From a virus: a DNA stretch of 64,000 nucleotides. Made by a program: the position numbers and the translations under genes. Location of the stretch: positions 1 to 64,000 of IMG/VR virus record IMGVR_UViG_3300036770_001423; one strand, written 5' to 3'. The notes under the pieces were generated by a model, which was not told the origin of the DNA, ran no database searches, and saw only the letters and a list, made by a program, of their open reading frames with translations. Shown piece after piece: positions 1,439 through 37,097 of this stretch. Every line of letters begins with the position of its first letter. Position 1 is the first letter of the stretch.

Positions 1439-2356
1439 ATGGAAATACAATTACCAACAAAAGGTTACAAAGGGATGAAAGAGCTTTATTCGTCCAAAGC
1501 TACAGGTGAAACAGCTTTCTGTTCTTTATCTGGAATCAACGTAGCTGCTGTGACGGATGATGAATACGAGCACATAGCCGATTTGACATTGGAAGCTATC
1601 GACATTATGATTGAGAACGCACCAATGATGACAGATTCAATGAAAGCTGATATTATGTCTCGCCGTTCTGTTGGTGTAGGCATGTTGGGATTAGCTGTTG
1701 ACTTATACAACAATAAACTTGACTATGATGGGTCTGTAGAGTCTTTAGAGCGTGTTAGATATTTAGCTGAGCGTCACTACTACTATTTACTGAAAGCCTC
1801 TCAAAAGCTCTCTGAGGCTTCAGGATTCGCTGTGGAAGGTATTGATGTGAACTGGCTACCTATTGACACAGCAATGAAGAAAGACTGTAAGTTCGATTGG
1901 GAAGCATTGCGAGGTAAACCACGGAAACATTCGGTACTTGTGGCTCACATGCCTACCGAGAGCAGCAGTCTTTTAAGTGGTGTACCTAACTCCGTGTACA
2001 GTCCTAGAGAGAAGATTGTGTATAAGAAGTGTCGTAAAGGTGTGGTTCAGTTTATCTGCAAAGAGTTTGTTGAAGGTAAACATTTAACTGCGTGGGATAT
2101 TGACAATAATGTGATGTCGAAGTATTATTCTGAAATACAAGATTTCACTGACCAAGCCACAAGCTGTGATGTGTTCCGCGCCCCTGAGAACTATCCTGAT
2201 GGTAAGGTGCCTATGTCTGTTCTGATGAAGGAGTTTGTTACTCACTTCAAGTTAGGTAACAAGACTTGGTATTACGTCAACACTAAACCTAAACGAGCTA
2301 CTACGTTACACAACACGGTAGAAGCTGAAGATGGTTGCGAATCTTGTAAGTTGTAA
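1439..2356 (+). CDS. nrdA: Ribonucleotide reductase alpha subunit, exon 2
   Basis: MEI..AFCSL, MPTESSS, WYY tyrosine pair, C-terminal CESC redox cysteines. Confidence 0.95.
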   Translation: MEIQLPTKGYKGMKELYSSKATGETAFCSLSGINVAAVTDDEYEHIADLTLEAIDIMIENAPMMTDSMKADIMSRRSVGVGMLGLAVDLYNNKLDYDGSVESLERVRYLAERHYYYLLKASQKLSEASGFAVEGIDVNWLPIDTAMKKDCKFDWEALRGKPRKHSVLVAHMPTESSSLLSGVPNSVYSPREKIVYKKCRKGVVQFICKEFVEGKHLTAWDIDNNVMSKYYSEIQDFTDQATSCDVFRAPENYPDGKVPMSVLMKEFVTHFKLGNKTWYYVNTKPKRATTLHNTVEAEDGCESCKL

Positions 2357-2360
2357 TTTT

Positions 2361-2384
2361 AAGGGAGCATTATGCTCCCTTTTT
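2361..2384 (+). terminator. Hairpin/terminator between nrdA and nrdB
   Basis: AAGGGAGCA-TTA-TGCTCCCTT followed by T run. Confidence 0.6.
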
Positions 2385-2400
2385 CATTTCTGGAGGAAAT

Positions 2401-3477
2401 ATGTTAGAAGTATTCAACGTAAATAATAAAGGTTATGTCACAGGTAAATACCCGTTGTTCTTAGGCGAGAAGTTAGGCTTGTATGATTCAGTGAACGTAG
2501 CTTATCCCGACATCGAAGAACTATATCAGCAGCAGTTTGGTCAGCGCTGGAGTGAGTTTGAATACGATCTCACTCAAGATAAAATGGATATGCTCACTCT
2601 ACCTAAAGAAACCACTGACTTAATGGTTGAGACAATCATGTGGCAATATACGGCAGATAGTATTGCAGCTAAGTCTTTGGCTGAATTGCTGTTACCTTAT
2701 GTCACAAATAGTGAGCTTGAAGCTATGGTGACTATCCAAAGTTTCTTTGAGATTATTCACAGTAGAACATACGCTCACATCGTTAAGCAGACAATCCCTA
2801 ACGCTAAGGATTTGTTGGAGAAGACCTACAGCAATGTAGAAGTGATTAAGCGCTCTAAAGTGATTGGAGAAGCTTTTGGTGCCTTGTATCGCTTAAAAGA
2901 GGACAGTCCGCGTAAAGAGAAGATTCGTGCATTGCTTAGAGTGATGTTTGCTTTGATGGCTTTTGAGGGTGTAAGCTTCATGTCATCGTTTGCTGTGACA
3001 TTCGCTATTGCGGAGACAGGGGTGTTTCAGGGTATTGCTGGTTTGGTTGGATTGATATGTTTTGACGAACTACTCCATGCTAAGATGGATTATACTGTGC
3101 TGAAGAATTTGTTGAAAGACCCTGAATGGTATGCAGAGTTCTTAGCTATTAAACCTGAGATTAGCGCAATCATCAACGCTGTAGTTGAGCAGGAACATAA
3201 ATGGACAGAACACCTATTCAACGAAGGTCGTAGAGTGGTTGGTTTAAGTCCTGTATTACTTCGTGAGTTTGTAATGTATATGGCAACTCCGTTGTATAAG
3301 AGCTTTGATCTCGTAGCGGAACATCCGTTTATTGAGAAGAACCCATTACCATACATGAACAAGTATTTAAAGTCTGGTGTGATTCAAGTGGCTGCTCAAG
3401 AAGTACAGTTAAGTGATTACAATGTGGGTAACATTGTTGACGATACAGATAACCTAGATTTGAGTTTTGATGTCTGA
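2401..3477 (+). CDS. nrdB: Ribonucleotide reductase class Ia beta subunit
   Basis: Di-iron motifs EIIHSRTY, FEGVSF, DELLH; follows nrdA; SD GGAGG. Confidence 0.95.
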   Translation: MLEVFNVNNKGYVTGKYPLFLGEKLGLYDSVNVAYPDIEELYQQQFGQRWSEFEYDLTQDKMDMLTLPKETTDLMVETIMWQYTADSIAAKSLAELLLPYVTNSELEAMVTIQSFFEIIHSRTYAHIVKQTIPNAKDLLEKTYSNVEVIKRSKVIGEAFGALYRLKEDSPRKEKIRALLRVMFALMAFEGVSFMSSFAVTFAIAETGVFQGIAGLVGLICFDELLHAKMDYTVLKNLLKDPEWYAEFLAIKPEISAIINAVVEQEHKWTEHLFNEGRRVVGLSPVLLREFVMYMATPLYKSFDLVAEHPFIEKNPLPYMNKYLKSGVIQVAAQEVQLSDYNVGNIVDDTDNLDLSFDV

Positions 3478-3495
3478 TAGAATTATCAGAACCTA

Positions 3496-3518
3496 GCCCC
3501 GCTCATGCGGGGCTTTTT
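3496..3518 (+). terminator. Intrinsic terminator
   Basis: GCCCCGC-TCAT-GCGGGGC then T run. Confidence 0.85.
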
Positions 3519-3596
3519 ATTGCCTAAAATAAATGTTGACATTAGATGCGCTTGTGTGTGTATTCTTATCTCAACAAACAAATGAAGGAGAAAATT

Positions 3597-3947
3597 ATGA
3601 CTGATTTTACCATGTTAGATGTTATTAAACAGATTTTAGTTGAAGGTGGTGATGTATCTGTAGTTTTAGTGGAAGACGAATTATATTTTAATATGAATTC
3701 TGGAACTAAAGCTCATTTATACGTGTCCATTAATATTGTTGACAATACGATAAGATATACCACACGATACGATAATGGACACATGTACAACATACACTCG
3801 ATTGCTGACGCAATCGAAGAAATAACTTATGTGATTCGTTTCGAGTGTATGTGCGGTAGAGATTTTGTGAGTGATTACTGGATAAAGAAATTTATTGAAT
3901 ACGGTTATGCTGAAGAAGTCAAACGTACAGAGATTGTTTTCAAATAG
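3597..3947 (+). CDS. Hypothetical protein
   Basis: ORF; start chosen after SD AAGGAG. Confidence 0.75.
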   Translation: MTDFTMLDVIKQILVEGGDVSVVLVEDELYFNMNSGTKAHLYVSINIVDNTIRYTTRYDNGHMYNIHSIADAIEEITYVIRFECMCGRDFVSDYWIKKFIEYGYAEEVKRTEIVFK

Positions 3948-3956
3948 GAGAATACC

Positions 3957-4172
3957 ATGACTAAACAACAAATCTTAGCACAAGCTTGGGACTTATACCA
4001 CGAACATAGCCAGCTTATTACATTAGGTGCTTGTATTCGCACTGTATGCAGTCAGATGGCTACAAAAGAACATAAATGTTTAAGCACTCTTGACGGTAAT
4101 CCAGCTTTGTGTTATTTTAATGAACATTACGACGATAAGTTTGAGCAGCAATATTTATTGGAGGGAATTTAA
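3957..4172 (+). CDS. Hypothetical protein
   Basis: ORF with SD AGGAG. Confidence 0.7.
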   Translation: MTKQQILAQAWDLYHEHSQLITLGACIRTVCSQMATKEHKCLSTLDGNPALCYFNEHYDDKFEQQYLLEGI

Positions 4173-5436: not shown

Positions 5437-5880
5437 TTATAGATCAAACAAACCGTCTGGAGTATTAACACGAAATACCGAGTTAGTAGAACTAGCTGAT
5501 AAGCCAGCACCTACGTTAAGGTCAACATAACCGATTAGTTGATCTGTTCCAGTCAATGAACCGCCTGCACGTTTAACTAAATACATATATTTAGCAGTAA
5601 GTGTTACCGGGTCACCGAAGCTGATATTATCGCAATCCCATAAGATTTTGTCAGCAGTACGAACAGAAGTTTTATTGGTCACAACAGCCGGAGCGTAGTC
5701 AGCATCAGCAATTACGTTAGCAGAAATATCAGCATAGGTTGAATGCGTCAGGGCGGGTGTGTGAGCTGCCGCTACCAATACACCAACAATTGTATCAGAA
5801 GCCCAGTTGATTTGGTTAGCATTATCAGTCGTTAATGCTTCTTTGCCTGTGTTTAAAAGAGTAAATGCGCCTACAGCCAT
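5437..5880 (-). CDS. Putative virion structural protein
   Basis: beta-rich small-residue composition, LIGYVDL near C-terminus; co-transcribed with the 779 aa protein. Confidence 0.55.
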   Translation of the reverse strand: MAVGAFTLLNTGKEALTTDNANQINWASDTIVGVLVAAAHTPALTHSTYADISANVIADADYAPAVVTNKTSVRTADKILWDCDNISFGDPVTLTAKYMYLVKRAGGSLTGTDQLIGYVDLNVGAGLSASSTNSVFRVNTPDGLFDL

Positions 5881-5892
5881 TTCTTGTTTCCT

Positions 5893-8232
5893 TTATTTAA
5901 TGAAAAATGTTTTAACTTTATTACCGTCTATGAAGTAGACGCGAGATATATCGACAGGGTAAAACACGGATTGTGCCATGCCCAACGTTTTATAACCAAA
6001 CGTATAAGTGGTCAAACCCATATTTAATGAGCTACCTGTGCTTATAGATAAGGTTTTACCGGAAGTGATAATATTTCGTTTTATTAATGTACCATCAAAC
6101 GGTGTTGCTGTCCCAGAGTCTAAAGTCAACAACTTACTTACCACATTGACAGAGTATTTGATTACGTCAGCGTCAAAACCTACTGCCGTACCAGTAGATA
6201 AGGTTAACTGTTTACCAGATAAATTGACAGATAGTTTTGAAGCACCAATATCAAACCCTCCAGAGAAACTAGAAGATTTACCTGCAACAGAAATTGATCC
6301 TCTGTTTAAACCAGAATCAAAAGATACTGAAGTTCCTGAGTCAAGTGTCAGCGTCTTACCTGATGACATTACGCCAGTTTTAACTATCGGACTATCCCAA
6401 CCAACACTAAGGTTTAAAGTTTTCTGAGACACACTTAGGTTTGATTTAGTCAGTGGACTGTCAAATGGAGAGCTGTAGAAGCTCGACACCATGCCGTTGT
6501 AAACAGCTGTCGCAGCCAATTGAGCTTCTGTGTCAGTTTCATAGTGTATCTTCTGATACAGTGGCCAAATCTGTGGAACTACATCAGACGCATTTGCATT
6601 AGATGCCGCTATATCATTAATCCACTGACGCACGTTTGCGTAATCTGTCAGGTTTAATCCCGATATAGCCACCAACATGCTATTCTTGCCGGTTAGCGTT
6701 TTTAGCTGGTCAATAACGGCGTTATAGCGTGTTTTAAAATCTGTTTCGCTTGTCGCTGCACCAGCGTCGCTTTCACCAATCCAGCTACAAACACCTTCCA
6801 GTCCGTCAGATGCTGCCGCAGTGATGTAGTTCAGCATTCGAGTATTAAGTGTTTGCCCGCTTTGCCACTGTGAAAGCGTGGTGCTACCTGCCGCAACACC
6901 GATAAACGCCACAGGGCATCCCAGATACGCTGTAAGGCTGTTTGCCAGCAGCGGGAATAAAGAGCCGCTTGCGGTGTCTGTATCGAATGGATCTGCGCCC
7001 TGCTGCCACAGGTTGTTTGTCACTGTGTATTTGTGGAAAAATCCAGCAGTGCCGGTGTACGCCTGCGGATTATTGGCGCGGCCCGAAAAGTTGGATTGCC
7101 CCCAAAATAAGAATTTAGCACCGATAGCGATATTGTCCGCGCTGTCTGTCACTGATGTAGCGTTGGAATAACGCACTTCTAGGGTGCCGTTACCAGATGG
7201 CAGCCCGGTTAGTGTGCCGCTAAATGTTCCGCCAGAGGGAGATGCGGTTATCGTGGTCCACGCGCCGCCGTTCCATCTTGCTTCGATGCCAGTCGGGACT
7301 GTGCCACCTGAGTACGTGCCGGTAATTGCAATGCTGCCGGTGTTAGTACCTGCGTTACGCTGGAACATCTGCCAGTCGTAGGGCGATGTAATAGCAATAA
7401 TGTCAGCAACAGAAAGATTTAAACCACGATCAGCGCCGCCAGCTGCGGAGTTATCCAGCACACCCCCAGCGGCTGCCGTGTAGACTTGGCCGGCGTAGTT
7501 GGTAAACGCTGCTGTCGTTACACCAGTTAAAGCATTTGCACCTGTGGCGGATGTATCACCAGACGATAAGTAACTAACCGTCGAAGTGGTTGAAGCACCA
7601 AAGAAGTTTATTAAACCATTACCATAACAGACCACGTTATCAATAACCGCGCCGGAGATGTCTTTGCGCATGCCGCCACGGCTGGCCGTGTTTGTGGTGT
7701 TGTTTCCGACTACAACGCACTTGCGAACAGTGATACCAGCAAAGCCGTTGTTAATGCCCCATGTTGTTGCGCCTGTTACCACACAGTTTTCGACTAAAGT
7801 AGTTGCCGTGGCTCTGCCGTGGCTAATACCTGTCGTGCCACCACGGACCAAGCAGCGCATTACTGTGGTGTTTGTGTCCTCGAATGCACCTACCCTTAAA
7901 CAGACGCTGGCAGCGGTTGTGACTAACTCCAAATCTTCAAGCGTCATAGGCGCAACAGGACGCCAATACAGTGCGCTTGTGGTTGTGCTGGCTATTTTGG
8001 CGTGTGGCGCTGTCGGGTTGGTTAAATCAAGTTTAACAGCTGTTGCGGCTCGAACCTTTACAGAGCCATCAAAGGTTCCGGTCACTTCGCCCCAAGCGTA
8101 ATCTGCTGCATCTATAAGCTCAGCAATATACACATCACCAGCACCGGCAAAGGTATTACGAGCAGACCACCAAGCGGCAAGCGTTGTAAAATCCGCACCG
8201 GATGCGCCTATCGTCTTGACTACATCAGCCAT
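5893..8232 (-). CDS. Multidomain virion protein: beta-helix, Ig-like linker, SGNH/sialate O-acetylesterase-like domain, C-terminal repeats
   Basis: GQSN block I, WIGESDA block III and IHY; right-handed beta-helix-like repeats at N-terminus; FD..K.L.L..G repeats at C-terminus. Confidence 0.75.
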   Translation of the reverse strand: MADVVKTIGASGADFTTLAAWWSARNTFAGAGDVYIAELIDAADYAWGEVTGTFDGSVKVRAATAVKLDLTNPTAPHAKIASTTTSALYWRPVAPMTLEDLELVTTAASVCLRVGAFEDTNTTVMRCLVRGGTTGISHGRATATTLVENCVVTGATTWGINNGFAGITVRKCVVVGNNTTNTASRGGMRKDISGAVIDNVVCYGNGLINFFGASTTSTVSYLSSGDTSATGANALTGVTTAAFTNYAGQVYTAAAGGVLDNSAAGGADRGLNLSVADIIAITSPYDWQMFQRNAGTNTGSIAITGTYSGGTVPTGIEARWNGGAWTTITASPSGGTFSGTLTGLPSGNGTLEVRYSNATSVTDSADNIAIGAKFLFWGQSNFSGRANNPQAYTGTAGFFHKYTVTNNLWQQGADPFDTDTASGSLFPLLANSLTAYLGCPVAFIGVAAGSTTLSQWQSGQTLNTRMLNYITAAASDGLEGVCSWIGESDAGAATSETDFKTRYNAVIDQLKTLTGKNSMLVAISGLNLTDYANVRQWINDIAASNANASDVVPQIWPLYQKIHYETDTEAQLAATAVYNGMVSSFYSSPFDSPLTKSNLSVSQKTLNLSVGWDSPIVKTGVMSSGKTLTLDSGTSVSFDSGLNRGSISVAGKSSSFSGGFDIGASKLSVNLSGKQLTLSTGTAVGFDADVIKYSVNVVSKLLTLDSGTATPFDGTLIKRNIITSGKTLSISTGSSLNMGLTTYTFGYKTLGMAQSVFYPVDISRVYFIDGNKVKTFFIK

Positions 8233-8447
8233 TATTTATCCTCAATAGAATCTGTTGTTATCATCCTTAACCAAGCTCCAATCGTAGCAATAACAACAAA
8301 TACAATTCCATAATGCTCTCCAAGAACATCATAAAATAAATGTAAGTTGTATTCCAAGATACCAATGAACGCCAAGAGCATGTTGAATAAAATCGTCTTA
8401 CTCTTTTTAAGCTTAGTAAGGAAGCTTTTAGTAAATATTTTTCCCAT
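8232..8447 (-). CDS. Putative holin (two TM segments)
   Basis: 71 aa, two hydrophobic stretches, downstream of endolysin. Confidence 0.55.
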   Translation of the reverse strand: MGKIFTKSFLTKLKKSKTILFNMLLAFIGILEYNLHLFYDVLGEHYGIVFVVIATIGAWLRMITTDSIEDK

Positions 8448-19133: not shown

Positions 19134-19750
19134 TATTTCGCCCCCGTGATAGCATCGAAGTCAGGTTCTTCGATGGCGTTACCTGTCAGATAATTATACC
19201 CTGCCCTTCCCGCTGTATATTCAATGCCGGATTTACTACCGTTATCTTTCTTGCCCGATAAACCATCTTTTGTTGAAGCTGATGCGTTATCTGTACTGTC
19301 AGTTGTCTCTCCAGCTACTTGAACTAAAGAAGCTTTAGCTTTATCAACAATCTTGATTTGTTCAATTGACATACTAATACGCCAACTACCAAGACCTTCA
19401 ACAACACCTTTCTGTCCACTGAAGTCTGTGAACAAACAATTCTTATATGGAGACAAACGGTTGTCTAAGAACACAGTAAATAGTTCACGAGATTTACGTA
19501 GTGTATCCAATCCTTGGATATAATCCTTGATACCTTTCTGTGGAGAGTTCTTAGTAAGATTGACGACTTCAGTTATTACGCCAGATAATGTAAACGTAGA
19601 ATTTTCAACAACAGAGTGGTCTGTAACAGAAGCCCCCGACTCAACGGGGAACTTCGTATTAGTGTTTCTGTGTTGAAACCCTACATCAGTAGTGGCGGTT
19701 AGTTCAAAGACATCGCCAGCTTTTGTCTTGATGTAGAATACAGCCATCAT
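19133..19750 (-). CDS. Tail tube initiator (Dit-like)
   Basis: TKFPVESGASVTDH motif directly after tape measure. Confidence 0.8.
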   Translation of the reverse strand: MMAVFYIKTKAGDVFELTATTDVGFQHRNTNTKFPVESGASVTDHSVVENSTFTLSGVITEVVNLTKNSPQKGIKDYIQGLDTLRKSRELFTVFLDNRLSPYKNCLFTDFSGQKGVVEGLGSWRISMSIEQIKIVDKAKASLVQVAGETTDSTDNASASTKDGLSGKKDNGSKSGIEYTAGRAGYNYLTGNAIEEPDFDAITGAK

Positions 19751-20793
19751 CTAACTCCTACTGATTGTAAAGCGCCGTAGTTGTCCATAACTTTCTTGCT
19801 TTCCTCACCAATGCGACGAATCTGTTCATCATTGACATCACCTTGAATGATGATTGTTTGATTAAACATCATATCGTATGCAGACTTAGCTAGGTTGACA
19901 GGGGCTTGTAGCATCTTCTGGTAACTATCTAAAAAGTTAGCCGTTGCTGGCATAGCTTTCTTAGCAGCAGCAACACGTTCTTCCCCACTCATGGCGGCAC
20001 CAAATAAGTAAGAACCAATACCACCTGACTCCCTCTGCGCTGCCATTATCTGCTCACTGCTGAACTTAGACAAGAACTTCTTATCCGCTTCATTTCCGAA
20101 GCCAGCTCGAACACGAGCCTGTGCTGCTGCAATATCTCTACTTTGTTGTGAAGCTTTATCACTTTCCCCTACGCCAATTAAATTGGAATCAAAGATTGCT
20201 CTAACTTCATCAATAGCTGCCAACATACCTGTAATCATGGCAAACGGTGTTTTAAGCGCCATCATCAAAGCTCTACCGAAACCAGCAGCCAACGGTATCA
20301 GTGTCCTAAAGCTTGCAGCGATACCAACAGCAGCAATTGACATCGCTGCCATAGGGTTATCAGCACCCCATTTCATTACTTTCCACAGCGTTTCTAAAGA
20401 ACGAATAAAGAAAGTAATTGCAGGCGTCACTATGTTACTAATAACGTAACCTATTGCTCGGAAAACTTTATCATAAATACGACCAATGCGTTCTAAAGCT
20501 ATCCCATTATTACCTAAAGTGTCTGTCAAGTTTTTGAATAACTGTGCAAGACCTTTATTGTACCCACTGTTGAATACTTTGTCCTGAGCAAGCTGTAACT
20601 CGTTAGTGAATTGACCTTGCGCTACACGAACACTGTTTAATTTTGCCTCTAACGCACCACCGGCACTAGACATTAACTTCATTTGCTTAGCAACTTTAGG
20701 TAACGTGTCTACCGCCATTAAGTTACCAGCTTCCATTAACTTGAACATTTCAAGTTCTGTCATACCTAAAGCTTTAGCAAATATTTGTACACC
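19747..20793 (-). CDS. Tape measure protein, exon 2
   Basis: Begins GVQIFAKALGMTELEMFKLME after intron terminal G20794; spliced protein about 803 aa. Confidence 0.9.
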   Translation of the reverse strand, partial: GVQIFAKALGMTELEMFKLMEAGNLMAVDTLPKVAKQMKLMSSAGGALEAKLNSVRVAQGQFTNELQLAQDKVFNSGYNKGLAQLFKNLTDTLGNNGIALERIGRIYDKVFRAIGYVISNIVTPAITFFIRSLETLWKVMKWGADNPMAAMSIAAVGIAASFRTLIPLAAGFGRALMMALKTPFAMITGMLAAIDEVRAIFDSNLIGVGESDKASQQSRDIAAAQARVRAGFGNEADKKFLSKFSSEQIMAAQRESGGIGSYLFGAAMSGEERVAAAKKAMPATANFLDSYQKMLQAPVNLAKSAYDMMFNQTIIIQGDVNDEQIRRIGEESKKVMDNYGALQSVGVR

Positions 20794-20924
20794 CGTTTTG
20801 TTCAGGAGCGGTCGTTACTCACTCCCCGCTTTATTCAAGCTGCTGCATGTTTCCATGCAGACCAGACTATATCATCATCTCTATAAGATGCTTATCATTT
20901 CGAGTTCACTTGAACCCTACTCCC

Positions 20925-21629
20925 TTATGGGATAGTCGTTGAGCACAATACCAATTCGTTATATAATTCTTTATGTGTTTTACCTGAGGTGATATTTGCT
21001 ACATGGTGCCTGTTTATCTTACCACCAAATTCAGCAATTATTTCCTTAGTTGTTTTTCCAGAGATAAACATTAAAAGTACTTTTCTGACATCATCTTCAG
21101 TCAAATATTTTCTTGGTAAGTTAAACTCATAATCATTAGATATGTGAGACCAAGACTGTTTACTCTTAATTGAATATACTGTTGATTTATTTAAACCGGT
21201 AATTTTGCAAATTTCCATAATCTTCTTACCTTCACACAGAAGACTACATACTTGCCTTACCGTCTCATCACTAATGGTTGCCCTATATCCCAACCTACCA
21301 ATCAACATATTACCAAACTCAATACCGTGTTGGTAATTCCCTTTAGGGGATACCCACTCAAGATTCTCAATAGAATTGTTACGTCTATTTGAATCTTTAT
21401 GGTTAACTTGAGTAAGTGTTGTTGGATCTGTATTTTGGATAAACACAATAGCTAACGCTCTGTGTACATAACAACCTTTAGTTTTCTTTTCAACAGGGCA
21501 CCATACCTTGATTCTCAAATACCCGTCTCTGTCTGTGTATGGTGTTAATTTATTCAATGTGTAGCTGGAATAACAATTCCCGTCAACGTCTATAGACAAG
21601 AATTCATAATCTTTTACTTTATATAACAT
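20925..21629 (-). CDS. Intron-encoded HNH homing endonuclease
   Basis: VHRALA..VNHKDSNRRNNSIENLEW HNH motif and two C-terminal HTH-like repeats; SD GGAGG; 3' end overlaps intron P7. Confidence 0.9.
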   Translation of the reverse strand: MLYKVKDYEFLSIDVDGNCYSSYTLNKLTPYTDRDGYLRIKVWCPVEKKTKGCYVHRALAIVFIQNTDPTTLTQVNHKDSNRRNNSIENLEWVSPKGNYQHGIEFGNMLIGRLGYRATISDETVRQVCSLLCEGKKIMEICKITGLNKSTVYSIKSKQSWSHISNDYEFNLPRKYLTEDDVRKVLLMFISGKTTKEIIAEFGGKINRHHVANITSGKTHKELYNELVLCSTTIP

Positions 21630-21726
21630 GTTGCCTCCATTTAGGAGGATTGGCATCTTCGCTGCGGATTGTCCAATCCTGACAAATTTTTACTATACTT
21701 GCAATAGTTAATTGCAACCCCACACT

Positions 21727-21755
21727 ATATTACTATGTATGGTTAGTATTGTCAA
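21727..21755 (-). promoter_or_regulatory. sigma70-like promoter inside the intron, upstream of the HNH gene
   Basis: TTGACA-17 nt-TAATAT. Confidence 0.55.
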
Positions 21756-21823
21756 GCTCTAAGGAGTTTCCCGCATTAGATAAGTTTTCTGTATACATTG
21801 CTGTATACAGGGGCTTTCTATAA

Positions 21824-23188
21824 ACCCGGCATTGATTCTGCGAATTGCAAACGCAACTCCTCACTGGAGATGCGGGTTTTACTCATCATCTGCTGAATAG
21901 CATTGAATGCTAACTTCATTTTCTCTTGTGATAAGCCTAACACTGTACCAAGCTCAGACATATTAGTGAATAGTTCTTCAATCTGAGTATTGGTTAATTT
22001 ATCTTTAGCGGCAAATTTAAACTTGATGTATTGATCCGCAATATCTTTTACACTCAAACCTAAACGTCTTGACAAATCAATCAAGAACTGCATTTGCTGC
22101 TTAGCGTCTGACGTATTACCTGTTGCGGCAAGCATAGCAGAGTTTAAAGCTTCAAATGATTGACCTGTTTGGTTGATGGCACTTGTACCAGCAAACAAAG
22201 CATACAGACTCGCGTACTCTCGTACCATGTTGCGTGTAGAGTCCTGTAAACTGCTCATTGCAGCAGCAGCACCCATACTATGTCTACGCTGTTTCTCAAG
22301 CTCATGGTTCATCCTAGACAGTTCTTTTGTCACTGTTCTAAGCTGATCTATGTTACCTGAAGCAATAGCTGCATCAATCTTAGCACCGCCAAGGGGACGA
22401 TAACGTTCTACATCTCTTGCTGCACGAACAAACGCATCAGCACCTTTCTGTGTAGTTTGTTTCTGAGCGCCTTGAAGTAATGAAGCTTGTTGCTGAGATG
22501 TGTAGTTCTGAAAACCACCACCCTTCTTAATGGCATTGAATGTATTGTTTGTAGCAGTACCTGTTGGACCAGTCATCAGTGTGGCTACACGAACATTAGA
22601 TTCTTTCAAATCTCTGTTCAGTTTAATTACACTAGCACGAATCGCTTTAATCTTTTCTAATGAACCCCCACGAGCCGCTTGTCTTGCTGACAATAAAGCC
22701 TGCAATGCTTGTTGTCTTCCTTCAGGACCACTAGACTTTAAATCACGGAAAGCTTGTAAATTAGTAAGAGTACCCAACGACCTACGTTTACGTAAGCGCT
22801 CATTGGCAATGCCGAGAGCAGACTGGTCGGACTGCATCTTACGATAGTAATTACCCATAGCTTTGAGCTGAGGGTTTACTTCAGGATTGATTAATGCACG
22901 AACAGCTTGTTGACGTTTAGCGGATTCAATAAAACTTTTATCAGCAATCTTTTTACTTTCTTTAGCTGACTTTCTTTCAATATCTTCTTTCTTCTTAGCT
23001 GTTGTTTCAGCAACCTTCACAGCGTTATCGGATATTTGCTTCTCAGCTTTTAATCCATTCTTAACACGTTTAGCGTCTACTCCAACAGCTAACTTTTCTA
23101 ACGATTTGTGTAAATCTTGAATTTGAGATTTAATCTTTGATGTATCAAACCCCAAGCTGACAAGAAAATCTTCAATTGGGCTGGACAT
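21824..23188 (-). CDS. Tape measure protein, exon 1
   Basis: IEDFLVSLGFD N-terminus, helical Ala/Lys-rich body, tape-measure domain QMMSKTRISSEELRLQFAESMPG. Confidence 0.9.
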
Positions 23189-33883: not shown

Positions 33884-34987
33884 TTATGAATTAAGGTCAT
33901 ATTGCGCTTTGATTGTGGGATCGTTGAGAGCGGTTAGTTTTGGGACTGTGTAGGTTTTGATTGTATTCAATGCGTTTAGGGCTGAGGCTGCGCAGTCGGC
34001 TACGTCATCCTTGTACCGCTTTGTGCTACGCTCCCCTGAAAACTGTTCTAGACTTTGTAGATAAAATTCCAGTGTCGCAGCATCAAATGTGCTTGCTACA
34101 ATCTTGACTAGACCATTCTCACAAGCAGAAGCAAAAGGAGCAAACTTTGTCATCTTAGATTTGTTACTCGGCATAGGATCTGCTTTAACAACATAACCTT
34201 TACCTATTAATTTCTTAGAAGACTCAATGAACTCATACTTACCTGCCGCAGAAGGATCTTTTGGAAAGATTATTGTAACATCAGTGCCGTCATGTGCTGC
34301 TTGTAGCTCTATGAGGTTATCTCGCTCACCTACAGTCTTTCTAACTACTCCGAGAACTTTACTGTCTGGATCTTTAAAACTTGGGTGAAAGTCGCCAAAG
34401 ATATAGTAATAACCCTCTTTATCTTTAGCCATACCTATCTGTGCTGTGTAGTCTGGACTTGGTTCTTTGTCTGAAGGCGCAGTTCCTGCTTTATCATAAG
34501 CCCTAACGCATTTTGCACCAAGAGGAATCTTGTCAGCAATAGCACACCACTTTCTATCGAAGTACAAGCTATTAGAAGGGCGTACTTTCCAGTTACCATC
34601 CAACAATCTCGCTCTGTCGATAGGGTTCAAACCTTCCAACCATGCTAAATAATCAGGGTTCTGTTCTAGCATCTTAGGGTTGTCCCTAATTGTGCTACCG
34701 ATAAAACTGAAACTGATTGGTTTTACGTTATCACCATATGTAGCTTTTAATTCTTCTGGCGTATCTGCCCAGAAGTATTGACCGCCTTGTAAAATGAACC
34801 AGCGTATTACACCAGCCCTTTCTTCGATAGGGAAACCTTCGTCATCTAACCACCAAGAAATCATCTCTGCTATCTTGTGGTCGGGATCAGGGTTGCAACT
34901 GATCACCATTCGTGAAGGGTATTTGGACTCGGAACGCATCCGAGACATCAGATATTCTATTTGTGACCAATCGAATTGCGTACCTTC
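33884..34987 (-). CDS. terL: Terminase large subunit, exon 3
   Basis: Starts EGTQF; SCNP coupling motif, RAYDKA and DDVAD nuclease residues. Confidence 0.92.
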   Translation of the reverse strand, partial: EGTQFDWSQIEYLMSRMRSESKYPSRMVISCNPDPDHKIAEMISWWLDDEGFPIEERAGVIRWFILQGGQYFWADTPEELKATYGDNVKPISFSFIGSTIRDNPKMLEQNPDYLAWLEGLNPIDRARLLDGNWKVRPSNSLYFDRKWCAIADKIPLGAKCVRAYDKAGTAPSDKEPSPDYTAQIGMAKDKEGYYYIFGDFHPSFKDPDSKVLGVVRKTVGERDNLIELQAAHDGTDVTIIFPKDPSAAGKYEFIESSKKLIGKGYVVKADPMPSNKSKMTKFAPFASACENGLVKIVASTFDAATLEFYLQSLEQFSGERSTKRYKDDVADCAASALNALNTIKTYTVPKLTALNDPTIKAQYDLNS

Positions 34988-35237
34988 CGAAGTGTTCAAT
35001 AAGGTTCGTTAATCCTTACCAGCAGCACTACCTGCTTCTGCATGTCGCCATGCAGACCTGACTATATCATCACCCCATTAGGGTGTCTCCCGTTTCCACT
35101 CACTTGAGTGTACGCCTTTCGGCTAGTCGATGAACGTTCTCCGTTAGGAGCTTCGCTGCTGATTGTCTCTGTGAGAGTTCCCAGCAATTAGAGAGATTAT
35201 TCGACACATATTACTACGTGAAGCGACTATTTTACAA
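34988..35237 (-). mobile_element. Group I intron 2 of terL (250 nt, no ORF)
   Basis: P1 CGAU/GUCG; P7 GACUA (35124-35128) / UAGUC (35060-35064); terminal G34988; splicing restores Walker B IAFD-E. Confidence 0.93.
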
Positions 35238-35537
35238 ATCGAACGCAATGAATGTATACTGTAAGCCTTGGTGATTGTACTTGTCTTTTTCTGTCTCCAT
35301 GTGAGACCATTTCATTTTAAAACCAGTAGGAAACTTAGCTTCTAATGAATGCTCTGACATACGAGGACGGAGTTCTGTGGGTAGCTGCATATACATATTA
35401 CGTGCAGTATCAAATACGCCACCAAGACCTTTGATTTGAACTGTTGTTCTGCGGAATACAATTGCGTTTGCTTTTGGGTCATCTACATAAAGCAAAGGGA
35501 GCATTTGTAATAGGAAACTTTTGCCGGAACCGGCTGC
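35238..35537 (-). CDS. terL: Terminase large subunit, exon 2
   Basis: AAGSGKS..FRRT..QGLQYTFIAFD, exactly 100 codons. Confidence 0.92.
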
Positions 35538-35779
35538 CAAATATTATGTAGTCGCTACACTACTCTGCCTTTTCAAGCAGGATCGGGTCATATCTTCATC
35601 CCAGAGGGAGTCTACCGTTTCGGATAATCAATCGCTTATTACCCTACGCCCTGACAAGGGCTGACCTCCACACACGCCATTACGCTTGGCTCGGTATTAG
35701 CATAGAGCGTAGCCCCTTAGCTTTCACCGAATTAGATAGATTCTTAGATACACATTACTGTGTTCTGTGGCGCAAGTTC
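35538..35779 (-). mobile_element. Group I intron 1 of terL (242 nt, no ORF, variant P7)
   Basis: P1 GUGGU/GCCAC; P4 CGGU/ACCG; P7 GGUCA (35662-35666) / UGACC (35586-35590) after AAGAUA; terminal G35538; splicing restores GG-AAGSGKS. Confidence 0.9.
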
Positions 35780-35890
35780 ACCACCCATGATTAAAATTTG
35801 AGCCTTACAATCAACAATCATTTGTTGTTTTTTAGATGTAGGCCCAAAAGGTAATCTTATCTCGCGGGGTTGTTTTTGTTTAGTTGTCAT
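35780..35890 (-). CDS. terL: Terminase large subunit, exon 1 (37 codons)
   Basis: SD GAGGAG; MTTKQKQPREIRLPFGPTSKKQQMIVDCKAQILIMGG; not in the ORF track. Confidence 0.9.
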
Positions 35891-35945
35891 AAAACTCCTC
35901 TTAGTTATAAATACTCAGGGGAATACTTATAAATAAGAGCCAGAC

Positions 35946-37097
35946 CTAATCTGGCGTAATATACTTTAACAATATGTCTAATACAAGACTGAAGTCTTTA
36001 CGGTGGAATGTCTCTGTATAACCAGAACCCATTTCTTGTTTTGTAATTATACCTCTTTCGATACCAGAAGATATAATCTCACTCTCAAGTTTGCGTATAA
36101 CGTACCCATCAGGGTTCTCAAGATAGTATATTACAGATAAGGGGTATTTACATTTCTGTTGTATCTGCTTTAATCTTTTATCTAAATTATTCGTTATACC
36201 AAATTTCAGCACATCGTCAGTAACTTTCAATAAATAAAAAGTACCTCCCATAGTGCTTCTATAACCAACCCTTTGATTCGAGCATCTAGGGCAACCAGCG
36301 GCATAAAGATGACTGTTAGGTGCTTGAGAAAACACACCGTGATCTCTGCATATGATGTCTATCTTAGTATGTTGATTTTTGTAATCAACTAATGAATAGT
36401 CATATTTATCACCATGCACTTTCTTAGCTAATGATATGTATTCTTCTGTTGTGAACTTAAACATCTCTGCTTTAGCTAGTGAAGCACACTTAGTACAACC
36501 AATTGTAGTTAAATGGTGATCAGCCCTTTGAGTGACTACGCCGTGTAACTTACATTCGTATGTAATATACTTACTCTTACCAACATACTCAGTAATAGAG
36601 TAGTCATATTTATCCCCATGAACTTGTTTTGCTTTTTCTACATATTGTTCTTTACTAAATACTCTACTTTTAGAGTTATTGACAGTAGCACAAGATTTGC
36701 AACCAACTTTGCCTGCTGTATGTCCTGACAGTTCTTGTCTAAATACTCCGTGGTCAGGGCAAATAATATCTACAATATCTTTAACTTTGACATTATCGGG
36801 TATAAGACTATAATCATATTTACCGTTATGGGCGCATGTTGCTTTATCAATAAAGTACTGCCTAGGTTTTCTGGTAGCTTCTGCGATCCTTTCTTTGGCG
36901 CAGAGCTTACACCCATGTCTAGCGGATGTGTGACTGTTTGGGGTCACTTCAAATACAAAGTCGTGCTTAATACAACGAACTTTAACTTTATTACAGGCTT
37001 TAGTGTAAACAGACAAAGAATAATCATACTTATCTCCGTGAACACTTCTAGCTTTAATGATAAACGTTTCTAAATCTTCTATTTCGTGCTTTGCCAA
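35946..37097 (-). CDS. Free-standing endonuclease: four zinc-binding repeats plus C-terminal GIY-YIG-like domain
   Basis: Four HG/HNxKYDYS..C..H..H....GC..C repeats; FYLL..KFGIT..R..E..GYTE nuclease domain. Confidence 0.8.
   Translation of the reverse strand: MAKHEIEDLETFIIKARSVHGDKYDYSLSVYTKACNKVKVRCIKHDFVFEVTPNSHTSARHGCKLCAKERIAEATRKPRQYFIDKATCAHNGKYDYSLIPDNVKVKDIVDIICPDHGVFRQELSGHTAGKVGCKSCATVNNSKSRVFSKEQYVEKAKQVHGDKYDYSITEYVGKSKYITYECKLHGVVTQRADHHLTTIGCTKCASLAKAEMFKFTTEEYISLAKKVHGDKYDYSLVDYKNQHTKIDIICRDHGVFSQAPNSHLYAAGCPRCSNQRVGYRSTMGGTFYLLKVTDDVLKFGITNNLDKRLKQIQQKCKYPLSVIYYLENPDGYVIRKLESEIISSGIERGIITKQEMGSGYTETFHRKDFSLVLDILLKYITPD

Follow-up and report, generated by a model that had tools for sequence, protein, structure and literature searches.

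Two probably selfish group I introns interrupt the terminase large subunit gene of an uncultured phage at Walker A and Walker B

In Vibrio phage ICP1, splicing of an intron in the gene for the terminase large subunit (terL) was demonstrated by RNA-seq, reverse transcription PCR and Sanger sequencing (Barth et al. 2023, NAR Genom Bioinform, PMC10448857). The authors remarked that the short exon had been overlooked by annotation, and they discussed the neighbouring T5orf172 gene in terms of collaborative homing or else of endonuclease-gene turnover (PMC10448857). The terL gene of Escherichia phage rV5 was published as three segments (ORF64ABC) with two introns (Kropinski et al. 2013, PMC3606486). 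In Bastillevirinae and other Herelleviridae, terL contains between one and three group I introns, some of which were found to splice in vitro or in vivo, and a GTP-sensing "molecular on-switch" was proposed for those of Bastillevirinae (PMC11878797); a terL intron of Lactobacillus phage LL-H was described by Mikkonen and Alatossava 1995, as cited in PMC3606486. Here we analyzed the first 64 kb (hereafter the window) of IMG/VR record IMGVR_UViG_3300036770_001423, a 94,296-bp uncultured-phage genome with direct terminal repeats that is rated complete. Its terL gene lies in three pieces, and very probably it carries two selfish group I introns of the self-splicing type, whose recombination may be started by the product of a neighbouring T5orf172 gene. 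The phage is distantly related to Barbavirus and to the rV5/ICP1-type packaging module. The locus comprises the following features, listed in the order of transcription.

35946..37097, minus strand: T5orf172 endonuclease-type gene, 383 amino acids, stopping 55 nt ahead of the terL start
35895..35902, minus strand: Shine-Dalgarno sequence of terL exon 1, AAGAGGAG (GAGGAG at 35900-35895, direct reading)
35780..35890, minus strand: terL exon 1, 111 nt, 37 codons, with an ATG start and ending ATG GGT GGT (..ILIMGG)
35538..35779, minus strand: intron 1, 242 nt, group I without an open reading frame (ORF), between G37 and A38 (Walker A)
35238..35537, minus strand: terL exon 2, 300 nt, 100 codons, GCA GCC GGT TCC GGC AAA AGT ... 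TTC GAT, encoding AAGSGKS (the rest of Walker A) to ..FIAFD (the Walker B aspartate)
34988..35237, minus strand: intron 2, 250 nt, ORF-less group I, between D137 and E138 (Walker B)
33884..34987, minus strand: terL exon 3, 367 codons plus stop, beginning GAA GGT ACG and ending TAA, encoding the catalytic Glu (EGTQF), the remaining ATPase domain and the RNaseH-like nuclease domain
33871-32351, minus strand: Mu-type portal gene, downstream of the terL segments

Joining the three exons in phase 0 gives a 1515-nt coding sequence that stays in frame, has one terminal stop and encodes a TerL of 504 amino acids. This protein reads ..ILIMGG|AAGSGKS.. and ..FIAFD|EGTQF.. across the two junctions, the last Gly of exon 1 being the first G of Walker A, and the ligated RNA junctions would be ...ATGGGTGGT/GCAGCCGG... 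and ...GCGTTCGAT/GAAGGTACG.... The exon coordinates proposed in the initial annotation (35890-35780, 35537-35238 and 34987-33884, phase 0, 504 residues) proved exact to the nucleotide. The check that it had suggested, colinearity with an intronless homologue, came out in its favor: the joined TerL is 57% identical over 488 residues (BLASTP) to the uninterrupted TerL of Salmonella phage PVP-SE1, with zero gaps at both junctions (AQILIMGG|AAGSGKSFLLQ versus AQILIIGGAAGSGKSYLLQ at the first, QYTFIAFD|EGTQFDWSQIEYL versus QYTFVGFDEGTQFEWSQIEYL at the second), and exon 1 matches residues 5-27 of the PVP-SE1 protein once the exons are joined. The Pfam profile Terminase_6N (E 3e-11) is matched by exon 2 at positions 6-103 and by exon 3 at positions 104-214 and is therefore unbroken across junction 2; Terminase_6C (E 2e-7) is found in exon 3. 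Both terminase hallmarks appear after joining, namely Walker A as G37-AAGS-GKS44 and Walker B with the catalytic Glu as F133-IAFDE138.

We found no second terL in the complete, terminally repeated genome, and translation of the unspliced RNA would stop 11 codons past the 5' splice site in intron 1 and one codon into intron 2. Because of the single gene and these early stops, it is reasonable to suppose that both splicing events are needed to produce TerL. Both introns are in phase 0 (35780/35779 and 34988/34987), so that exon 1 joined straight to exon 3 would also remain in frame (GG|EGTQF, 404 amino acids, without the ATPase core); such exon skipping was reported in vitro for the TerL of SIOphi (PMC11878797). 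With 242 and 250 nt, both introns are too short for an endonuclease gene.

Comparison with the close relatives L007 and L009 indicates that the interrupted gene is functional and under purifying selection, since the nonsynonymous divergence (dN) is 0 in exons 1 and 2 against both, and the ratio of dN to synonymous divergence (dS) is about 0.04 in exon 3. Exon 1 has 100% amino-acid identity in the two relatives although synonymous changes are present.

Intron 2 is an ORF-less group I intron of a common phage type. It scores 83.1 bits on the Rfam model RF00028 (Intron_gpI; E 1e-19 over the whole window), compared to a gathering score of 50 bits. Its P1 helix pairs the guide GUCG (35227-35224) with the exon end CGAU over 4 bp including the terminal U.G pair, P7 is canonical (GACUA at 35128-35124 with UAGUC at 35064-35060), and the last base is G at 34988. 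In blastn searches, intron 2 matches introns of many phages, among them phiKZ-like, Staphylococcus and Acinetobacter phages. One such match in Avunavirus terL (H96) was set aside, as it is actually another, downstream intron with an HNH gene.

For intron 1, a 1-kb search gives only 38.5 bits (E 4e-8), less than the gathering score, which is explained by a compensatorily altered P7 helix: GGUCA (35666-35662) pairs with UGACC (35590-35586), so that three inner pairs differ from the consensus on both strands and the outer G-C and A-U are retained. The other elements can be placed as well, with P1 formed by the guide GCCAC (35771-35767) and the exon end GUGGU (5 bp, via U.G), P3 by 35740-35735 with 35616-35611, and the terminal G at 35538. 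Reading of the sequence also points to a candidate P10, as the four bases ahead of the guide are complementary to the first four bases of exon 2. The U.G pair in P1, the P7 helix and the terminal G that had been noted for each intron were all recovered, and the placement of two ORF-less group I introns at Walker A and Walker B was supported by the Rfam matches and, for intron 1, by covariation.

Homologues of intron 1 interrupt terL at the identical bond (..GGT GGT | GCN.., GG|A) in 10 other genotypes.

L007/L008 and L009: close relatives of the window phage, ~88-91% nucleotide identity
L039: TerL 75-84% identical
Rheinheimera phage Barba21A: TerL 57% identical, intron 75.7% identical to intron 1
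L035: TARA contig
Vibrio phage ICP1: TerL 37% identical
L021, L042, L023 and L027: uncultured phages, TerL 32-38% identical

The Barba21A-type intron is present in 112 GenBank records of Rheinheimera phages. The introns of L023 and L042 have a canonical P7 and, at 69.1 and 51.2 bits, exceed the gathering score. In these sequences, the family is fixed at one Walker A bond, after the first Gly and before the Ala of the P-loop, across very divergent TerLs including that of ICP1.

Covariation supports the predicted fold of intron 1. In a 10-sequence MAFFT alignment, we counted 42 pairs in P3, P4, P5, P6a, P7, P7.1, P7.2, P9 and P9.1; P1, P2, P5a and P8 were excluded because MAFFT misaligns them in the L021 group. 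Standard pairs fill 95.6% of the cells, compared to 79% in column shuffles (0/500 as high) and 26-39% with slid partners, and 22/42 pairs are altered on both sides. P7 is 100% paired in the 10 sequences, with 3/5 pairs compensatory (GGUCA/UGACC, GAUCA/UGAUC, GGCCA/UGGUC, GACUA/UAGUC), and P7.1 and P7.2 covary. P7.1 and P7.2 (between P7 and P3'), P8, P9 and P9.1 fold in 7/7 sequences tested, although the sequence differs in each. Given the P7.1/P7.2 hairpins between P7 and P3', the predicted fold places the family in subgroup IA in a broad sense. RNAalifold on the MAFFT alignment missed P7 (which forms a pseudoknot with P3), P7.1 and P8 because of local misalignment; segment folds and explicit pair counting were used instead. 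An Rfam scan of the Barba21A locus gave zero matches at E <= 0.01 despite the 75.7% identity to intron 1. As the variant P7 depresses the scores, a missing Rfam match is not evidence of absence for this family.

An exact search with an 18-mer of the intron core returned further sequences that were set aside, either as chance matches in a coding gene (L019, L024) or as introns of other genes (L018, L028, L020). In three metagenome contigs (L034, L037, L040), the P4-P6 core of the intron 1 family follows just after sequences resembling a tRNA 5' half, which suggests related introns in tRNA genes.

The short first exon is easily lost in annotation. The initial annotation had described the 37-codon exon as absent from the ORF list; indeed it is not listed as such, but it appears as part of a 48-aa ORF that extends into intron 1 by 11 codons, to TAA at 35746-35744. 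Gene callers that miss this exon truncate TerL, and the same error is found in the 112 GenBank Barbavirus records and persisted in ICP1 until 2023. In the Barbavirus GenBank records (Barba21A, MK719733.1, 2938-3343), TerL is annotated with 454 aa, starting after the Walker A intron, and the intron is unannotated. Exon 1 has been entered as gp096, a "hypothetical protein", and another entry, gp097, is placed within the intron.

The Walker B stretch differs from Walker A in that group I introns occupy six positions within 33 nt among related phages. Positions are given relative to the D|E bond of the window; a script was used to check the five uncultured alleles, and rV5 was inspected visually.

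-20 nt, CAGT|AT: L007/L008
-12 nt, CGT|ATA: L023
-5 nt, GGAT|TC: L021
0 nt, GAT|GAA: the window and L009
+6 nt, GGT|ACA: rV5
+13 nt, CAGT|TC: L039

This set of six positions is described here for the first time. Every one of the introns has a guide of 4-6 bp that matches its own exon and includes the U.G pair, a terminal G and 59-97 bits on RF00028, and ..FDE.. is regained on joining. The five uncultured introns are 50-75% identical pairwise, and that of the window is nearest to that of L039, though their sites differ. The guides of L007 and L039 are identical (GCUG) and follow two different CAGU sites 33 nt apart that share 10/12 upstream bases. No second terL intron was found in Barba, L035, ICP1, L027 and L042, and terL of PVP-SE1 and L010 is without any intron. 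In IMG/VR, the ligated junction 1 sequence gave zero matches; the uninterrupted coding string for FIAFDEGTQF occurs only in the L007/L008 contigs, whose intron sits 20 nt upstream.

Other introns were observed in this gene neighbourhood. In L011 (IMGVR_UViG_3300037628_000218, 2259-3724), whose TerL is 44% identical to that of the window, a 1.46-kb intron lies at GGAAGS|GKT, 12 nt downstream of the Walker A site of the window, and encodes LAGLIDADG_2 (236 aa) and GIY-YIG/I-TevI-like (180 aa) proteins. The portal gene of L007/L008 contains an extra group I intron (L007, IMGVR_UViG_3300034072_000174, 5868-6088; 82.9 bits) that is ~69% similar to terL intron 2 of the window and is found neither in the window nor in L009.

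Pairwise comparison of the close relatives revealed a sharp change in divergence within terL. Between the window and L009, a tract of 97-100% nucleotide identity extends from ~36250, within the endonuclease gene, over both introns and the first two exons of terL, and identity falls to ~80-85% from the first bases of exon 3. With L007, the fall is placed at L007's own intron site. Against these two relatives, dS climbs from 0.11-0.17 in exon 2 to 1.0-1.2 over the initial 300 nt of exon 3, a ~7- to 10-fold rise at the intron 2/exon 3 boundary that is newly reported here. In these comparisons, a recombination boundary coincides with the Walker B intron site. According to a published view, the limits of genetic exchange in phages are marked by nuclease-associated elements, and the jump exactly at an intron boundary is one more such case.

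The gene directly upstream (37097-35946) encodes an endonuclease-type protein with N-terminal repeated zinc-finger/DUF723-like modules and a C-terminal T5orf172/MUG113 (GIY-YIG-related) domain (Pfam MUG113 E 7.7e-6, DUF723 weak), and it matches PHROG 681 "endonuclease" (E 3e-72) and PHROG 559 (E 2.5e-39). The gene is single-copy in the genome. Its product is 26% identical (E 2e-17) to ICP1 ORF130, which has the same architecture and position, and the gene found at this position in L035 encodes a homologue with 33% identity. The order T5orf172 gene, exon 1, Walker A intron is found in three lineages (the window group, L035 and ICP1) whose endonucleases are only 26-33% identical. No T5orf172 gene was detected beside the intronless terL of PVP-SE1, L010, L012 and L014, a small number of cases. 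ORF-less introns together with a free-standing endonuclease gene adjoining terL represent the layout of collaborative (trans) homing. L035 has, in addition to the T5orf172 homologue directly upstream of terL, a second copy further downstream (oriented 3340-4041 and 7549-8388), and an HNH/NUMOD4 gene is located directly upstream of the intron-bearing terL of L027 (1819-2571).

We propose that the late transcript would shed both introns via guanosine-initiated two-step transesterification, with the 5' site set by P1 and its U.G pair and the 3' site by the terminal G, and that the spliced product would be translated into the 504-aa TerL. Splicing in the window phage is predicted on the basis of structure, colinearity, selection and the ICP1 homologue. 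The spread and upkeep of the endonuclease-free introns would most likely occur via DNA-level recombination, which the T5orf172 endonuclease may start in trans (collaborative homing); the stretch that reaches from the endonuclease gene to intron 2 would then be co-converted. The view of the introns as selfish mobile elements is based on the variation of intron content and position among ~90%-identical relatives, the homing-endonuclease gene next door and the recombination boundary at the intron.

A more far-reaching version of this scenario appears unlikely. It would treat the 5' region of terL as one ~1.9-kb mobile cassette, in which a single trans-acting T5orf172 endonuclease co-converts the two ORF-less introns, and would have, separately, one Walker B intron lineage move between six or more sites in a 33-nt stretch by a change of its 4-6 nt guide. 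If so, the GCUG guide of L007 and L039 after two CAGU sites would be an example, explained by reverse splicing directed by the guide or by a relaxed specificity of the endonuclease.

Several points weigh against the interpretation as selfish self-splicing introns with a linked endonuclease. The evidence for splicing in the window phage is sequence-derived, complemented by the ICP1 homologue, and some phage introns fail to self-splice in vitro and need cellular factors (PMC11878797). P1 of intron 2 comprises only 4 bp, and intron 1 stays under the gathering score. The link between endonuclease and introns is positional only; the Barba phages, L039 and L021 have intron 1 but no upstream T5orf172 gene, and in L027 an HNH gene takes that place; and T5orf172 genes are common near terminase genes, introns or not (a terminase gene was present in 35% of the surveyed T5orf172 neighbourhoods). 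Finally, the dS jump marks a recombination boundary and not its cause, and the 5' part of the endonuclease gene is divergent between relatives.

The points concerning the endonuclease lend themselves to an alternative that we regard as quite possible, though short of an even chance, namely that the T5orf172 gene is unrelated to the introns. It could be an independent "intronless homing" element at terL or a packaging accessory nuclease, a role for which published discussion offers a basis in HNH nucleases beside terminase genes that can act as packaging factors, and the introns would persist by descent, ordinary recombination or reverse splicing. The frequency of T5orf172 genes near terminases and the intron 1 homologues without such a gene both fit this alternative. 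So does the common GCUG guide after two CAGU sites, as guide-directed reverse splicing predicts, but one protein could recognise both sites, as they share 10/12 upstream bases. What speaks for a connection is the same gene order in three lineages with such divergent endonucleases, the gene being the only copy in the genome, and the high-identity tract that ties its 3' part to both introns.

A regulatory function of the introns is much less probable. The initial annotation had suggested a post-transcriptional gate on late development, that is, splicing efficiency, through GTP or guanosine sensing or through coupling to translation, would time TerL production and packaging and would be the reason why the introns are retained. 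Such a gate would profit from their position in indispensable motifs of the sole terL, where no TerL is made without splicing, and from the conservation of intron 1 at one site over TerLs of 32-100% identity; with the on-switch proposed for Bastillevirinae (PMC11878797), it has a precedent and is not a new idea either. However, PVP-SE1 and L010 manage without introns and Barba, ICP1 and L027 with intron 1 only, while the Walker B intron is found at six positions and a different one is present in L007, which is ~90% identical overall. This variable intron content and position among relatives lends the gate no support and points to selfish elements. Placement in conserved motifs is, moreover, the expected signature of homing elements, and the sequence here offers no sign that would tell a regulated from a constitutive intron.

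That the inserts do not splice, with terL decaying, encoding separate polypeptides or being misassembled, can hardly be maintained: the sequence-based case for splicing and the low score of intron 1 leave some room for it, but the same three-exon layout recurs in independent assemblies from other samples (L007, L008, L009 and L039), the exons are under strong purifying selection, the intron helices covary, separate polypeptides would cut the P-loop (GG / AAGSGKS), the homologous ICP1 intron splices, and the genome is complete with terminal repeats and a single terL. An intein is ruled out by stops in all frames and by the ribozyme core, and translational bypass, a pseudogene and misassembly were likewise considered and rejected.

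Two further inserts were observed elsewhere in the window. An ORF-less group I intron candidate on the plus strand (1131-1438; RF00028 43.9 bits, under the gathering score) splits nrdA, the gene for the ribonucleotide reductase large subunit, into ORFs 58-1143 and 1439-2356, which cover PHROG 84 profile positions 120-488 and then 489-795. The tape-measure gene on the minus strand (19747-23188) is split by a ~1.05-kb insert (~21817-20764) with an HNH endonuclease ORF (21656-20925, PHROG 59) and two ribozyme halves recognised by Rfam (22.6 bits for 21833-21565, 40.6 bits for 21088-20843).

The Walker A family, tied to one phosphodiester bond in TerLs down to 32% identity, and the Walker B hotspot together form a natural series on the choice and change of sites by ORF-less introns. 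Knowledge of how group I introns or terminases work is unchanged by these findings. Our literature search found no paper pairing "Walker A" with terL group I introns and none on Rheinheimera phage introns.

Among the known systems, the terL introns of Bastillevirinae and other Herelleviridae and of LL-H differ from those described here: they belong to phages that infect Gram-positive hosts and whose TerL lineage is unrelated, and many have their own endonuclease genes. Precedents for trans or collaborative homing are provided by T4 mobE with the nrdB intron (PMC2790892) and, as cited in PMC10448857, by F-CphI with the psbA intron of cyanophage S-PM2 and by T3/T7-like phages. They resemble the window in that an ORF-less or defunct intron of an essential gene has a free-standing endonuclease gene as its neighbour. 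For these precedents, it was demonstrated that the intronless allele is cleaved or that inheritance depends on the endonuclease, whereas in the window a connection is suggested by position, and the endonuclease family, T5orf172, is a different one.

The nearest cultured TerL clade has rV5 as its type phage; the TerL of rV5 belongs to the same family as that of the window, and its pieces are ~45-56% identical. The first terL intron of rV5 has no ORF and reaches 84.9 bits on RF00028; its site in the Walker B region, FDEG|TQF, is 6 nt downstream of the one used in the window. The second is located far downstream (~residue 238) and carries an HNH gene. Unlike the window, rV5 has neither a Walker A intron nor an upstream T5orf172 gene.

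The terL locus of ICP1 has the same order and strand logic of T5orf172 gene, short exon 1, ORF-less Walker A intron and terL. There, the ORF130 endonuclease, with zinc-finger repeats and a C-terminal T5orf172 domain as in the window, is followed by ORF129, a 33-codon exon ending ..FYGG, by a ~250-nt ORF-less intron and by ORF128, which encodes TerL from AGGGKS. The intron site ..YGG|AGGGKS corresponds to ..MGG|AAGSGKS of the window, and the introns are homologous and alignable, with P7 being GAUCA/UGAUC in ICP1 versus GGUCA/UGACC in the window. Both genomes also have a tape-measure intron carrying an HNH gene. The two TerLs are ~37% identical, splicing is experimental in ICP1 and predicted for the window phage, and ICP1 has a single terL intron whereas the window phage has the additional one at Walker B. 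Overall, the two-intron terL of the window phage is a further example of the arrangement published for ICP1 and rV5.

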